Origin: a bacterium
GTDB taxonomy: Bacteria > Zhuqueibacterota > Zhuqueibacteria > Residuimicrobiales > Krinioviventaceae
Direction of reading: 5' to 3'
Length of the DNA stretch: 64,000 nucleotides
NCBI GenBank assembly: GCA_963674595.2
Contig: CAXXFV010000004.1
Location: 128,001-192,000, forward strand
Shown here: in pieces, positions 14,696 through 20,396 of the stretch
Numbering within the stretch: the stretch's first letter is position 1
Layout: every line of letters starts with the position of its first letter
Translations under genes and position numbers: made by a program
Notes under the pieces: model-generated
The model's database searches: none
What the model was told of the DNA's origin: nothing
The model's input: the letters and a program-made list of their open reading frames with translations, nothing else

Positions 14696-14701
14696 TAATT
14701 G

Positions 14702-15601
14702 ATGAATACAGACTTTTCCGATAAATTTAAAATTCAACATAATGTCTCACTGGCAGATTATACATCTATAAAAATCGGGGGTAATGCTAAATATTTAGCC
14801 TCCATCTCCGACCTTAATTTGTATATAGAACTGTATCTTTTTTGCAAAGAAAAAAATATCCGCTTTTTATCACTGGGGCATGGTACAAATGTATTTTTCC
14901 CCCAAACAGGTTTTGACGGACTTGTTGTGATAAATAAAATGGATAAAATATGTACATGCAGCGGAAACTCGATCCTTGCCCAGTCAGGCGCTTCTCTTGC
15001 TGATGTAAACAAAACATGTCTTGAAAATTCATTGACGGGTTTTGAATTTACCTCGGGCATCCCGGGCTCAGTTGGCGGCGCTGTTTTCGGAAACGCCGGC
15101 GCCTACGGATGTGCTATTGGCAACAGACTGATACGTGCAAAAATATTGACACCGGAAGGAAAAATTTCATTTGTAGATAATGATTTTTTTAAATTTTCTT
15201 ATCGCAGCTCATACCTCAAAGTTTATAATGCCATACTTTTAGAAGCAGAATTTCAATTCCAAAAAGGGGACCAGCAGATTATTGAAAATAAAATCAATGA
15301 AATTTTGGAACTTCGCAGGCAAAAATTACCTGATCATAATGTCCCGACTGCCGGTTCGTATTTTAAAAATTTAAAAGACCAAAAGGGAAACCCGATCGCG
15401 GCGGCAAAATATCTTGATGCTGTAAACAGCAAACAAACCAGTGTTGGCGACATTGGCGTTCATTTTAAACATGCCAACATTTTTTATAATAAAGGCAAGG
15501 GCACTGCCGACCAGGTGCTGGAACTTGAAAAAATTTTAAAAGATAAAGTCCTTAAAAAGTTTGGAATCGACCTGGAAAGAGAAGTCATGTTCCTGGAATA
15601 A
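14702..15601 (+). CDS. murB: UDP-N-acetylenolpyruvoylglucosamine reductase
   Basis: TSIKIGG, GHGTNV, GIPGSVGGAVFGNAGAYG, FSYRSS, AGSYFKN, HANIF, LEREV. Start could be TTG 14699. Confidence 0.93.
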   Translation: MNTDFSDKFKIQHNVSLADYTSIKIGGNAKYLASISDLNLYIELYLFCKEKNIRFLSLGHGTNVFFPQTGFDGLVVINKMDKICTCSGNSILAQSGASLADVNKTCLENSLTGFEFTSGIPGSVGGAVFGNAGAYGCAIGNRLIRAKILTPEGKISFVDNDFFKFSYRSSYLKVYNAILLEAEFQFQKGDQQIIENKINEILELRRQKLPDHNVPTAGSYFKNLKDQKGNPIAAAKYLDAVNSKQTSVGDIGVHFKHANIFYNKGKGTADQVLELEKILKDKVLKKFGIDLEREVMFLE

Positions 15602-15683
15602 AACAATTCTGTGTTTTTTTTAATTTTTTGCACGGGGATTTGAAACGAATTTATCAATTTTGATTTTATAAACCGCTATAACG

Positions 15684-15715
15684 TACAAAAGGTCCGGAGG
15701 ACCGGACCTTTTGTA
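15684..15715. terminator. Bidirectional Rho-independent terminator (end of the mur operon on +, end of the candidate sRNA on -)
   Basis: Perfect 14-bp inverted repeat TACAAAAGGTCCGG-agga-CCGGACCTTTTGTA, T runs on both strands. Confidence 0.85.
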
Positions 15716-15853
15716 ACTGGGCAATGTTAATGCGGGGGTGAATGGAGTTTTTATAAAAACCAGAGCTCACTGATGAATATCAATGGGGCTCTTCAGGGGA
15801 TGTTAAAAATGTAACTCGGCCATCCCGATAGTGAACCCTGGATTCGTTTTCTA
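15684..15853 (-). ncRNA. Candidate sigma54-dependent small RNA (~170 nt); no family recognised
   Basis: GC-richer island in an AT-rich intergenic region, bounded by a -24/-12 motif and a terminator. Several hairpins (GGGATG/CATCCC; AGAGC..CATTGAT-attc-ATCAGTG..GCTCT; GTTTTT-at-AAAAAC) and a C-rich linker CTCCATTCACCCCCGC. No convincing ORF inside the predicted transcript. Confidence 0.55.
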
Positions 15854-15863
15854 CTTTTACTTT

Positions 15864-15879
15864 AGCAACATTCATTCCA
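15864..15879 (-). promoter_or_regulatory. Putative sigma54 (-24/-12) promoter of the candidate sRNA
   Basis: Minus strand TGGAAT-GAATG-TTGCT versus consensus TGGCAC-N5-TTGCW; GG and GC correctly spaced. Confidence 0.55.
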
Positions 15880-15961
15880 TTTTGGAAACATTTATCCAAA
15901 AACAATTAAAAAAAATATTGCACAAGTCTTTATTTTACAATACCAAAAAATGTTAATTTTT

Positions 15962-15975
15962 TGTCAAAACAGACA
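15962..15975. promoter_or_regulatory. Putative enhancer-binding-protein site
   Basis: Palindrome TGTC-aaaaca-GACA (TGT-N8-ACA) about 83 bp upstream of the -24 box. Confidence 0.4.
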
Positions 15976-16049
15976 GGCGGGCCAATGATTGAGGCCTGAA
16001 TGAAAAAAACGACATAAATGGATGACAAAAGTCTTAAAAAAGTGTCGGG

Positions 16050-17741
16050 TTAATTTTTATAATAGAGAGTTATACCCCATGAATCCGGATTATCAGGTTC
16101 GCAAGCATTCCAATCTTCAAAGCTGTGGCTATCATCACTGATATAATAAAGCACATAATCTCCAACGTGCAAATTTATTTGATCTTTACATAAACGATTT
16201 TTTTGAGCGCCGCCGGCACTGGTCGTATTTTGATATTCCATCTTCCAGACGACAGTTCCCTTAGAATCTTCAATCCAGCCATAATCATACATTTCCATTT
16301 GTTCCCCTTCCCCAAGGGCATAGATAAGGATGGGGGAATTCTGAGAAACAGTAAATTGCTTTTGTCTTTTTTCATTATCGCCGACTTTAGTAATGGAAGC
16401 GATATAGTTCGGATCATTTTCTTTAACATAAGAAATAACATCATCCGGTACAAACGAGCTGTCAGCCGGGAAAAGAGAAATTCCCCAAAATTCAGAATCA
16501 ACCGGAGGTGCATCGTTCCATTGATTATAGGCATGAGAATCATCTGAACGATAATACAGGTAATAAGCCCCTGCGGGCAGTTCAATAATCTGGTCCGCCA
16601 TGCGGTTCTTTTTTGCTCCACCGGCATGTACAGTATTATTTCTATTCATTGACCACACCGTTTCATGGGTTCCGGCATTAACAATCCAACCATGATCAGA
16701 AAATTGTTTACTATGTTTTACCTGTTCACCAAGAGCATAGATTCTCACCTTGGTATCTTTTAACAGCTCAAAGCCCTTTTTAATAAAAGCATTGTCTTGC
16801 ACATTGGTAATTTTAATAATGGTTTTATCAATAATTTCTTTGTTGTTTAAAAATTCCACAAATTTCATATCTTTCGGAGAGAACCACAAAGTTATTCCCC
16901 AGTATTCCGGATCATAGGGAATACAATCATTAAATTCTTCAAAGGAATGAGAATCGTCTGTAATAAAAGTCAGTTCATATTCCCCCGGAGGAATGGAAAT
17001 TATTTCTCTAAAAAGTCTGTTTTTTCTGCTGCCACCGGCATAACGTCCTTGTCCGGATTGGGGCTGCCAAACAACCTTTCTTGTTTTTGCATTTAAAATA
17101 ACGCCATAATCAAACAAATCCCGGTCCGACCTCTGGGCTTCCCCCAGCATATAAATTTCAGCTTTTATGGTTTTTTTAACCACAAACAACGATTTTAAAG
17201 ACTGATCATCCCCAACCTTAGTTAATTGAATACCGGGCCGGCTGGTAATAAAATTTTTTAACGGATAGCATTGATCCTGGTTGCTTTTATAGGGTGTAAT
17301 TTTCAGGTAAAAGTTGTCTTTTTTTGATTTTAATTTCAGCCCAGCCATCAATTCGTCAAATAAGCCTTTATCATGTTCATTTACTTCCTGTTCAAAGCAT
17401 AAAATACCGGCATAGGCTTCGTAGGATCCTTTTCTTAAAACAACCTGATTTTGAATTGTTACAAAATTATAATCTTTTGAGGAAACATCGGTTCGGTCCA
17501 CTTTCCATACAAGGTCACGCGATTCGGAATCCAGCAACCAAAATAAAGCTATAGGTTCTTCATCCACCACCGGAATAACAGCATCTATTTTTACTGTCAT
17601 TTCATCATCGACCCGAAATGATTGTTTTTCCCACTGGTTTTCCTCAAATTGATTAATAAGGACGACCGGGTCACCCCAGGTTTGAGCCGTTAAGAGTTGA
17701 ACAGAAAAAATCCAAAATCCTAAAATTAATTTTATATACAT
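16050..17741 (-). CDS. Secreted protein built from four tandem ~120-130 aa beta-rich repeats, unknown function
   Basis: Signal peptide LLTA/Q; repeats 2-4 share IYxLGE, D(Y/H)Gx I, VW, AGGxxKNR, GxYxL, DDSH(S/A), PxxxxxWGI(T/S)L; repeat 1 is degenerate. Confidence 0.8.
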   Translation of the reverse strand: MYIKLILGFWIFSVQLLTAQTWGDPVVLINQFEENQWEKQSFRVDDEMTVKIDAVIPVVDEEPIALFWLLDSESRDLVWKVDRTDVSSKDYNFVTIQNQVVLRKGSYEAYAGILCFEQEVNEHDKGLFDELMAGLKLKSKKDNFYLKITPYKSNQDQCYPLKNFITSRPGIQLTKVGDDQSLKSLFVVKKTIKAEIYMLGEAQRSDRDLFDYGVILNAKTRKVVWQPQSGQGRYAGGSRKNRLFREIISIPPGEYELTFITDDSHSFEEFNDCIPYDPEYWGITLWFSPKDMKFVEFLNNKEIIDKTIIKITNVQDNAFIKKGFELLKDTKVRIYALGEQVKHSKQFSDHGWIVNAGTHETVWSMNRNNTVHAGGAKKNRMADQIIELPAGAYYLYYRSDDSHAYNQWNDAPPVDSEFWGISLFPADSSFVPDDVISYVKENDPNYIASITKVGDNEKRQKQFTVSQNSPILIYALGEGEQMEMYDYGWIEDSKGTVVWKMEYQNTTSAGGAQKNRLCKDQINLHVGDYVLYYISDDSHSFEDWNACEPDNPDSWGITLYYKN

Positions 17742-17751
17742 AATAAATCCG

Positions 17752-18594
17752 TTATTTTACAGTTATATCCAGTTCGCCAATTCCCGATGAAATGACAAGA
17801 TATAATGAATTTTCAGCCGTGTTATAGTTTTCCGAATAAAGATATTTGCCTTTTTTTGAAAACCTGGTCGGAAAATTAATTTGGGACAAAAAAGATAAAG
17901 ATGAAACTTTGATTTTTGTACCAACCGATTCAGGAATAATTACCGATGTTTCACCAATGTCGAGATCGATTTTGGCCATGGTTCGGTGTATTCTCTCACC
18001 GGTAAAATCGACAGTCATTTCACCAATGCCGCCGTTTATGTCAGCTTCTTTAAAATTCGCATTTCCAAGATTTCTTAATGTAAGCTCACCGACTTTAACA
18101 TTGACGTCAAATGTTTCCATGGGTATTTTATTGGGCTGGAAAAAGTCAACATCAACTTGACCTGCCCAGTTTATCAAATCAAAATTTTTTATTCTCAAGC
18201 CGCCTACATCATACTTGATTTCACCAGCCTTTATTCTGCTTTTTATATTAATAAAGGGCTTTTCAGGCAAACGAACGATGAGTTTTGCGCTTTCCTGACC
18301 ATTTGTGTTTTTCCAGACTTTCCAGTTTTTAAAATCAAATTTAATATCGAGTTCATTTTTTCTTTCATTAAAACGGATATCACCTCTGCTGTTTTTTTCA
18401 CTGTACTTTAGTGAAACCCAAACATAATCCTCATCATGTCTTTCGACAATGACAATGCCGCCGTCTACCTCCAAATTAATCTGAACATTGTCTTCCACGA
18501 CATAAGATTCTTCTATAACTACCCGTTGTTCCTGCGCAAAGACACAGGTAACGAGCAACAAAAAAAATGAACATAAGATAATAAACTGCTTCAT
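17752..18594 (-). CDS. Secreted LiaF/DUF2154/toast-rack-like beta-solenoid protein
   Basis: Signal peptide VFA/Q; repeated GE/GIGE turns (KAGEI, KVGEL, GGIGEM, DIGET, SGIGEL). Confidence 0.65.
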   Translation of the reverse strand: MKQFIILCSFFLLLVTCVFAQEQRVVIEESYVVEDNVQINLEVDGGIVIVERHDEDYVWVSLKYSEKNSRGDIRFNERKNELDIKFDFKNWKVWKNTNGQESAKLIVRLPEKPFINIKSRIKAGEIKYDVGGLRIKNFDLINWAGQVDVDFFQPNKIPMETFDVNVKVGELTLRNLGNANFKEADINGGIGEMTVDFTGERIHRTMAKIDLDIGETSVIIPESVGTKIKVSSLSFLSQINFPTRFSKKGKYLYSENYNTAENSLYLVISSGIGELDITVK

Positions 18595-18632: not shown

Positions 18633-20396
18633 TTAAAATTCCTTTTTCAATCGTATTGTAACAACAATATCGCCGTCTCCGACATCGGTCCGTTTTGCAA
18701 AATTGATGCGGAAATCATCATCATCACTGGACAGGCCAATTCCGACATTTGTTTTTAAAGAACTCCATGTCAATGAGCTAAAAGAGTCATCCAGCTTTTT
18801 CTCGTTCATTTTGTCCACATATTTCGGGTCCATGGGCCAATACGATTGCATTTCAGGAGTATTGCTTTCAGCGAACCAGGCACATCCGGAATCAACAAAT
18901 AATACAAGGTTCATTTCATCGAACAACGTCCAGTCCAATTCACTGGTTTCTAACGTGTATTCAATATTTGCTAATAACATCCGGTCACCTGTAAATTCTT
19001 TATGACGGTACCCTCTCAAAGTCGACAATCCTCCCAAATCAAACCAATACATGGGCGGTAAAACACCATTTGACGAACCAATTCGCAGCCGAAGGTCCAG
19101 TCCTTCATCCCATCCAAGTGGTTGATATCGCCTCACATCAAGAATTTGTCTTTGGAAATCAAGATCACTTTTCAGACCATTTCCGGCTTTTTCAGCAAAA
19201 AGATTAATAAACCATCCACGTTCCGGGTTTTCGTCATCATCCCTGGTGTCATAAACCAGATTAAATGAATAACTTTGCAGATTCATGTGGGGATCATTAC
19301 CGGCCGCTATCTCGTTCAAGCAGTAACCATAGGGAAGAGCCCAGGGATTGGGCCGAAAATCTTTACTCTTGCCAAACACGGCCCATTCGGTATTTTTTTC
19401 CAAATTATTTATTTTATCGTTATGATAGCCAAATTTTAATGACAACTGATCAAAAAATCTGTTTTTTGCATATATCGAAAAACCTTCCCGTTTATAATAG
19501 TCCCGGAAATCTTCATTTATTAAAAATGCACCCAGGGCATTTTCCAAATCACTGATAATCCAACGGTCTTGTGTATCTGTCATATCGTGGGCCTCGGCCC
19601 CGACTGTACACGCAAAAATTGGAAACACACAACGTTCCAGACCTATTTGATATTGTATATTTTTGCTTGAAAAGGAATAACCAACTTTACCTATTACACC
19701 GATTCTTTTTTGCTCTTTACGCCACCATTCGCTTGACGGAAAATTGAAACCGAGTGTCAACCCATCAACCCGGTTATAATCCGCGTAAACAGGTTCATGA
19801 TCTGACTGGAAGTTATGACGAACAATTTTGCGTTTTGGACGATGATGCTCGGTTGTAACATGAATTTCTTGTTCCTGCCTTTCCTCATCCGAAACACGGT
19901 TATAATGATTTGAACTTTGTCGCTCTATAATATCACCTTCAACAAAAGCATTTCGATCTTTCCAGATTTTACCGTCTACACAAACAACGTCTCCCTCAAC
20001 ATAAGCATCTGCTTCAAGATGAATATCTCCAAACAAGGTCAATATCGTTCCTTCAACCTGTCCGTATAACGTCAGGGTGCCTTTTACAACTAATATATCC
20101 GACCCAATCACTTTATCGGACGCAATTTCAACATCACCAAAGTATCTTTCAATATGGTTACCAACTCTTTCCTCTTCACCGATTTCGCCCTCTGTCTCTT
20201 TACCGGTACGAAATTCATTCATCCCTAGATACTTTTTCTCCATCTTTTCAGCAATTTCCTGCTCCTTTTCTGAAAGATTGGAATATTTCGGATCCTGAGC
20301 ATAAGTCCTTTTTGTCAGTAATAAGCTTAAAATAATAATAATTGCCATAATAGCCCAAATCCAGTACAGAATTTGTTTTGCCCGTGATTGTCCCAT
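18633..20396 (-). CDS. Omp85 (BamA/TamA-like) outer-membrane protein with bactofilin-like beta-helix N-domain
   Basis: Signal peptide TYA/Q; GDVEI/GTLTLYGQVEG/GDIHL/VEGDVV repeats; barrel begins at YNRVDGLTLG; Omp85 lid motif LGGLSTLRGY; C-terminal Phe. Confidence 0.75.
   Translation of the reverse strand: MGQSRAKQILYWIWAIMAIIIILSLLLTKRTYAQDPKYSNLSEKEQEIAEKMEKKYLGMNEFRTGKETEGEIGEEERVGNHIERYFGDVEIASDKVIGSDILVVKGTLTLYGQVEGTILTLFGDIHLEADAYVEGDVVCVDGKIWKDRNAFVEGDIIERQSSNHYNRVSDEERQEQEIHVTTEHHRPKRKIVRHNFQSDHEPVYADYNRVDGLTLGFNFPSSEWWRKEQKRIGVIGKVGYSFSSKNIQYQIGLERCVFPIFACTVGAEAHDMTDTQDRWIISDLENALGAFLINEDFRDYYKREGFSIYAKNRFFDQLSLKFGYHNDKINNLEKNTEWAVFGKSKDFRPNPWALPYGYCLNEIAAGNDPHMNLQSYSFNLVYDTRDDDENPERGWFINLFAEKAGNGLKSDLDFQRQILDVRRYQPLGWDEGLDLRLRIGSSNGVLPPMYWFDLGGLSTLRGYRHKEFTGDRMLLANIEYTLETSELDWTLFDEMNLVLFVDSGCAWFAESNTPEMQSYWPMDPKYVDKMNEKKLDDSFSSLTWSSLKTNVGIGLSSDDDDFRINFAKRTDVGDGDIVVTIRLKKEF

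Follow-up and report, generated by a model that had tools for sequence, protein, structure and literature searches.

The window, that is the whole 64,000-nt stretch of DNA analysed here, belongs to an assembly of 6.6 Mb (38.8% GC, 37 contigs) and contains two convergent genes, murB and a gene for a 563-aa protein, separated by a gap of 448 nt (15602-16049; C4:143602-144049 on the contig). Compared with the 424 convergent pairs of the genome, as delimited by crude ORF calls, this gap is long: the median is 61 nt and 10.8% of the pairs have a gap as long. Read on the minus strand, the order is the stop codon of the 563-aa gene (16052-16050), a weak hairpin followed by U7, a palindrome, an AT-rich stretch, a sigma-54-like box, a GC-richer body, a 14-bp hairpin and the murB stop codon. 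In coordinates of the window, the features are:

14699-15601, plus strand: murB, 300 aa, Pfam MurB_C and FAD_binding_4, converging on the gap from the left

15684-15715, both strands: putative two-way intrinsic terminator (T2), a perfect 14-bp inverted repeat (15684-15697/15702-15715, 100% complementary) with a 4-nt loop

15716-15853, minus strand: GC-richer body, 43% GC, predicted stems 15841-15830/15771-15760 and 15826-15821/15802-15797

15732-15747, minus strand: C-rich linker CUCCAUUCACCCCCGC, 16 nt, predicted unpaired, candidate pairing seed

15780-15875, minus strand: 31-codon ATG ORF, coding-like codon score, no Shine-Dalgarno (SD) sequence

15854-15950, minus strand: AT-rich stretch, 97 nt, 23% GC, upstream of the body

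15864-15879, minus strand: sigma-54-like box TGGAAT-N5-TTGCT, 15.6 bits on the in-genome matrix

15975-15962, minus strand: palindrome TGTC-N6-GACA (TGTCTGTTTTGACA), whose last six bases are a perfect TTGACA

16003-16047, minus strand: weak hairpin CGACA/UGUCG closing a large loop, then U7, directly 3' of the 563-aa stop codon (candidate terminator T1)

16050-17741, minus strand: 563-aa gene without a Pfam domain, the right-hand member of the convergent pair

The palindrome, the box, the linker and the 14-bp repeat had all been named in a preliminary description of this DNA and are indeed present where listed when the minus strand is read.

MurB was found in 16 of the 19 family genomes, the source genome included, with full-length matches at 51-59% identity, and the 563-aa protein (35-43% identity) in nine of the 19, i.e. 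eight of the 18 others. Upstream of the 563-aa gene are a LiaF-like/DUF4097 gene and an Omp85/DUF5686 gene (window 17752-18594 and 18633-20396). No congeneric genome was among the genomes compared, and, judged by MurB (55% identity or similarity), the closest record with a name is a genome of candidate division KSB1, a lineage that we take to belong to the FCB group; the organism had been guessed to be of this group, and the match fits that guess. Our ORF set comprises 5086 long ORFs, called crudely, which cover 88.1% of the genome. SD use is strong, with a GGAG peak at position -10 in 274 of 5074 starts against a background of about 5. The genome contains rpoN and 37 matches to PF00158 (30 of them at 197 bits or more), and no Hfq was detected in it at 97.6% completeness. 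Its sigma-54 regulon is very large: beside the 37 PF00158 matches there are 55 gene-facing -24/-12 sites against 4.6 by chance. A tRNA-Sec gene is found at C27:246263.

The terminator hairpin and the rearrangement junction

Relatives mostly carry a convergent gene of ~137 aa after murB and, after the 563-aa gene, mostly a co-directional membrane-protein gene of ~200 aa or, in one genus, a tight terminator. In the source genome these ancestral neighbours lie on the same contig as the gap, at C4:349344-349793 and C4:326911-327480, i.e. 183-206 kb off, and the gap is therefore a rearrangement junction. The ~200-aa membrane-protein gene, the usual partner of the 563-aa gene in relatives, is the one that sits 183 kb off. 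Three kinds of relic were rejected as the origin of the intervening DNA: a remnant of either ancestral neighbour gene (tblastn best E 0.6, and intact copies exist elsewhere), a tRNA relic (aragorn finds no tRNA near the locus) and a mobile-element relic (no terminal repeats beyond AT-rich runs).

The 14-bp hairpin has all the marks of a two-way intrinsic terminator: a stable GC-rich stem, a U-tract on both strands and a position between convergent genes. Its predicted stability is -23.0 kcal/mol (z -7.83) when read on the minus strand and -23.1 kcal/mol (z -5.81) on the plus strand, and none of 200 shuffles folds as well. On both strands TTTTGT follows the hairpin and an A-tract precedes it, and a terminator scan calls its core. 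The hairpin lies 83 nt from the murB stop codon, an ordinary distance, and 335 nt from the 563-aa gene. We infer that it acts in both directions, and murB needs such a stop anyway. The flanking genes are convergent, and the 14-bp terminator is therefore no orphan: the preliminary description was right that the hairpin exists, but it had given it to an RNA of its own, whereas it is common to both genes. The same description had read CCUCC in the terminator loop as an anti-SD sequence, which does not hold: three of these bases belong to the tetraloop and the other two to the stem, where the predicted unpaired probability is 0.00-0.01, leaving the motif inaccessible.

At the other end of the gap, the T1 candidate consists of a branched hairpin (16047-16010) and U7 (16009-16003), with a predicted stability of -7.4 kcal/mol (z -3.13; one of 200 shuffles as good). 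The terminator scan does not call it, and finds no strong site between the 563-aa stop codon and the 14-bp hairpin. T1 may end the 563-aa transcript early.

Promoter-like sequences on the minus strand

The test of the box rests on sites of the genome itself, the general sigma-54 consensus being background knowledge: every GG-N10-GC site was scored, and a matrix was built from 36 gene-facing in-genome sites. Sites matching at least six of the eight flexible positions are enriched in intergenic DNA, which has 52 of them, 42 facing the next ORF. With 15.6 bits on the matrix, the box is near the bottom of the range covered by the 36 training sites (15.1-25.5). Real sites in this genome read TGGCA[C/T]-N5-TTGC[A/T]; the box retains GG-N10-GC and TTGCT but is off at two positions of the -24 element, and it is the sole intergenic score-6 box to deviate in this way.

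There are 21 boxes that read TGG[not C]...TTGCW, where Markov-random intergenic sequence would give 20.2±3.5, and 10 score-6 sites that lack the -24 C (5.8±2.6 expected). In the 15-16-bit bin, all intergenic sites taken together, there are 16 (two of them training sites) against 4.3±1.8 expected. At 15 bits or more, sites facing a same-strand gene are greatly in excess (55 observed, 4.6±2.0 expected), whereas those facing no gene are eight against 4.6±1.5, and the box of the gap is the second lowest of these eight. Boxes reading GG[T/A]AC occur elsewhere in the genome 40-136 nt upstream of genes. Behind the remaining gene-less boxes lie small ORFs or repeats (several of these boxes precede a small ORF with an SD sequence or are repeat copies), and no RNAs similar to the candidate were seen there. 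The sigma-54 promoter of the preliminary description thus stands as a box within the in-genome score range, but the gene-less class to which it belongs is close to chance, and that it is a working sigma-54 promoter seems to us a poor prospect.

Two other loci came up in the course of the box analysis. At G000:C15:7777 (minus strand) a strong box of 21.6 bits faces no long ORF and is followed by a 42-codon hydrophobic ORF; as an unannotated small gene driven by sigma-54, C15:7777 makes a better candidate than the murB gap. At C3:50317 (plus strand) and C3:65154 (minus strand) lie near-identical copies of at least 330 nt, inverted and 15 kb apart, which start with an 18.3-bit sigma-54-like box.

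Sigma-54 promoters need an upstream enhancer-binding protein, as the preliminary description had noted. On the contig the locus lies at 143.8 kb and its closest PF00158 matches at 214370, 44424 and 23999; no such activator gene lies within 70 kb of it on this contig, the nearest being at least that far away. The palindrome, separated from the box by 83 nt of AT-rich DNA, is of a pattern found at chance level: the 781 kb of intergenic DNA contain 216 copies of TGT-N8-ACA (0.071 per 260 nt), and the regions upstream of sigma-54-like boxes show no excess of it (5 in 52, 3.7 expected). Neither an adjacent activator gene nor an activator site above chance frequency is thus seen at the locus.

The box can also be read as a sigma-70-type promoter, TTTCCA (15888-15883)-N18-TGc-TAAAGT (15864-15859), which agrees with the consensus at 8 of 12 hexamer positions and would give the same start. 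A second reading, also below threshold, lies further upstream as TTGACA-N19-TATTGT. The promoter scan calls no minus-strand sigma-70 promoter in 15400-16300; the tRNA promoters of the genome are of the classical TTGAC-N17-TATATT type.

Body, linker, small ORF and homology searches

The body had been described as forming three hairpins. A 177-nt fold that includes the terminator does reach z -4.84, because the terminator hairpin carries it: without the terminator, the 141-nt body has z -1.53, 12 of 200 shuffles fold as well, and stability over shuffles, a generic mark of a structured RNA, is not significant. On the plus strand this stretch has z +0.60, and such structure as exists is therefore found on the minus strand only. 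The first predicted helix begins 2-5 nt downstream of the predicted start (~15852).

The C-rich linker is predicted to be largely single-stranded, with a mean unpaired probability of 0.74 in a 169-nt context and 0.72 in a 366-nt context. Three or more C-runs within 100 nt occur on 34 of 4578 intergenic strands, mostly in repeats, and the gap is one of the 34. The same scan turned up two families of GC-rich repeated intergenic elements, with palindromic GGGG...CCCC cores and in tandem, at C17:83.4-86.3 kb, C27:156.3 kb and C16:547.7 kb and also on C13, C26 and C29. A look-alike C-rich motif at C23:486.3 kb was rejected, as it lies in a divergent promoter region and has no terminator. When a 25-nt stretch containing the linker was paired with the 5074 start regions, the best duplex reached -21.3 kcal/mol, a value matched by 31 of 60 composition-matched shuffles. 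Partners at -12 kcal/mol or below were 394 start regions, against 244±86 for the shuffles, three of 60 of which reach that number. The best predicted partner is the start region of C7:90067-92409, with a perfect 10-nt match to the linker; on current statistics this gene has no special standing as a target. No good partner was found among the neighbouring genes. Predicted pairing of the linker with start regions is thus a mild and non-specific signal. The seed proposed in the preliminary description survives insofar as the linker is predicted to be single-stranded in a genome with strong SD use; it fails to single out a target.

In codon usage the 31-codon ORF scores 0.225 per codon, where coding sequences have 0.241±0.135; among 2586 intergenic ATG ORFs it ranks within the top 5.6%. 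Its frame is the best of six, but the other frames also score 0.10-0.17 and GC content confounds the score. No SD sequence is present at -12 to -7 of this ORF, in a genome with strong SD use. It has no paralogue in its own genome (best E 0.053), no match in Pfam at E up to 10 and no word-sharing homologue among 5.8 billion proteins. The sole match among 1.84 billion representatives, a repeat protein that is presumably ankyrin-like and was aligned in six short stretches, was rejected as repeat-inflated. In 125 class genomes two matches were found, one being the source genome itself and the other having E 0.074. Neither an SD start nor a conserved frame, the marks of a small-protein gene, was found for this ORF, and none of the searches gave a homologue. 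In the window at 15669-15905 (minus strand), open stretches of 41 and 37 codons lie in the same frame with a single TGA (15782-15780) between them; the shared frame is taken to be a coincidence, because the second stretch crosses the terminator hairpin.

That the candidate matches no known RNA family was confirmed: a covariance search of the whole window against Rfam 15 gave no match at the gathering score, and the six weak matches within the gap (best E 0.36) all fall far below gathering. The candidate was also rejected as a 6S RNA, the genome's best 6S match lying elsewhere. This match (C6:365010-365194, minus strand) is full-length but, at 34.4 bits (E 6.8e-5), stays below the gathering score of 46.4; it is probably the divergent 6S RNA of the lineage. 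A blastn search of the gap against 40 relatives returned only a 38-nt AT-rich match (E 3.6e-4). The gap is single-copy in its own genome, without a paralogue, and has no match in phage and plasmid collections. In metagenome contigs, the 563-aa protein as query gave 17 pattern matches, none of them related, and a query of 18 nt from the linker hit 10 loci, each over no more than 18-20 nt; a search of species genomes with MurB alone found no match. A single-sequence covariance model run on 43 order-level and 125 class-level genomes (124 others) retrieved no true homologue: its matches were a coding region and two weak ones that are ordinary gene terminators. The missing homologues say little either way, because the relatives are too distant.

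Readings of the gap and comparison with known systems

The terminator is the sole well-supported functional element of the gap. We favour, at a little under an even chance, the reading in which the gap holds an ordinary shared terminator and a lineage-specific junction spacer. The hairpin at 15684-15715 would stop plus-strand transcription of murB and also minus-strand read-out from the 563-aa gene; the minus-strand segment 15716-16003 would be an untranslated tail or an untranscribed spacer, with a body lacking a function of its own; and both the sigma-54-like box and the palindrome would have arisen by chance in AT-rich DNA. Several observations argue against a spacer: (i) an island of 43% GC follows a stretch of 23% GC, in a gap that is long for a convergent pair, (ii) the 15-16-bit bin of boxes is enriched, (iii) the linker is predicted to be accessible and has extra pairing with start regions and, (iv) the fold is confined to the minus strand, with the predicted start close to the first helix.

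If T1 ends the 563-aa transcript early, the succession of weak hairpin and U7, AT-rich stretch, GC island and strong terminator looks like a separate small transcription unit. An orphan small RNA with a promoter of its own is therefore kept as a candidate, tentatively and clearly below an even chance; if a processed 3'-UTR form is counted too, the candidate comes close to even. A promoter other than sigma-54 could be either the extended -10 TGc-TAAAGT over the box or TTGACA-N19-TATTGT, upstream of an RNA with the same C-rich seed. The order of elements just described argues for such an RNA, and since the tRNA promoters are classical a sigma-70-type reading applies; glmY and NcS25, discussed below, offer precedents for the overlapping promoters and for the shared terminator. 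However, both promoter readings are below scan criteria (8 of 12 positions in one, a 19-nt spacer in the other), the fold is not significant and no conservation was found in the genomes searched, and we consider this RNA unlikely.

The preliminary description had instead proposed an independent RNA of ~170 nt transcribed from the sigma-54 box; in this reading it would start at ~15852, end at the shared hairpin and pair through its exposed linker with G-rich ribosome-binding sites independently of Hfq. The presence of rpoN, the large regulon with its excess of gene-facing boxes, the elements retained in the box together with its score and the GG[T/A]AC boxes upstream of genes elsewhere are all in its favour, as are the AT-rich DNA between box and palindrome, the unpaired linker in a genome with strong SD use and the failure to detect Hfq, which fits chaperone-free pairing of the kind described for 6C. 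Against it stand the two -24 deviations, the chance level of boxes facing no gene, the distance of any activator gene, the unenriched palindrome type and a best target that half of the shuffles equal, with none next door; no conservation was found either, though this is uninformative at these distances. We regard this proposal as quite unlikely, and less likely still the full version in which the ~170-nt orphan, driven by a weak sigma-54 promoter and ended by the murB-shared hairpin, would act through its linker to repress G-rich ribosome-binding sites with no need of Hfq.

The tail of the 563-aa mRNA could also be cut to release a 3'-UTR-derived small RNA. The linker and terminator together are shaped like such an RNA, and no strong terminator is called between the stop codon and the large hairpin; but T1 may already end the mRNA, no mark of a processing site was seen and relatives have no such tail, which makes this origin improbable. 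Equally improbable is a coding island, whether a gene for a 31-aa protein (15875-15780, minus strand) or a gene relic broken by the rearrangement: the codon score near the coding mean and the junction itself would suit it, but no SD sequence, homologue, paralogue or Pfam match was found for it, and its rival frames also score 0.10-0.17.

At present the case mainly carries three cautions: a -24/-12-like box that faces no gene is no evidence alone, the terminator of a convergent gene is not countable as an orphan, and a terminator hairpin alone can carry the z-score of a whole fold. If the small RNA were true, candidate division KSB1, for which we found no literature on small RNAs, would have its first described regulatory RNA, and there would be a first handle on RNA regulation and on a very large sigma-54 regulon in an uncultured lineage of the FCB group.

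Each part of the candidate has a counterpart among known systems. Small RNAs that depend on sigma-54 include GlmY, Qrr and CrcZ. Like GlmY/GlmZ of Enterobacteriaceae, the candidate has a -24/-12-type box before what would be a short structured RNA with its own terminator, but it has no sequence or Rfam match to them. The gene for the activator of glmY lies adjacent to it, whereas no activator gene is near the candidate. Overlapping sigma-54 and sigma-70 promoters with one start site are reported for glmY (PMC3045617), and the candidate box, too, can be read as a sigma-70 promoter with the same predicted start. The same paper reports three conserved activator sites upstream of glmY (PMC3045617), against one chance-level palindrome here. 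GlmY acts as a protein decoy rather than through a C-rich seed (PMC7073468), the mode proposed for the candidate.

Among small RNAs with C-rich seeds, such as 6C and RsaE, the linker recalls 6C of Mycobacterium, whose C-rich loops pair with G-rich ribosome-binding sites independently of a chaperone (PMC6486639). The candidate shares with it C-runs in regions predicted to be unpaired, a genome in which no Hfq was found and a proposed G-C pairing at ribosome-binding sites; it differs in that its main C-run would lie in a linker rather than in a loop, in the low GC content of the genome and in having neither an Rfam match (6C included) nor a standout target. NcS25 of Burkholderia is a small RNA that shares the hairpin of a two-way terminator with a convergent neighbour (PMC10117139); it is conserved across genera and in its context, whereas the candidate has no relative in the genomes searched.

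The hairpin itself resembles known bidirectional terminators in its perfect GC-rich stem, its short loop, its A-tract and T-tract on both strands and its place between gene ends. It is unlike them in its unequal distances from the two genes (83 nt and 335 nt), with ~290 nt of the gap left unexplained. Taken together, these comparisons suggest that the candidate, even if real, would be a member of already known kinds, with a precedent for each of its pieces.
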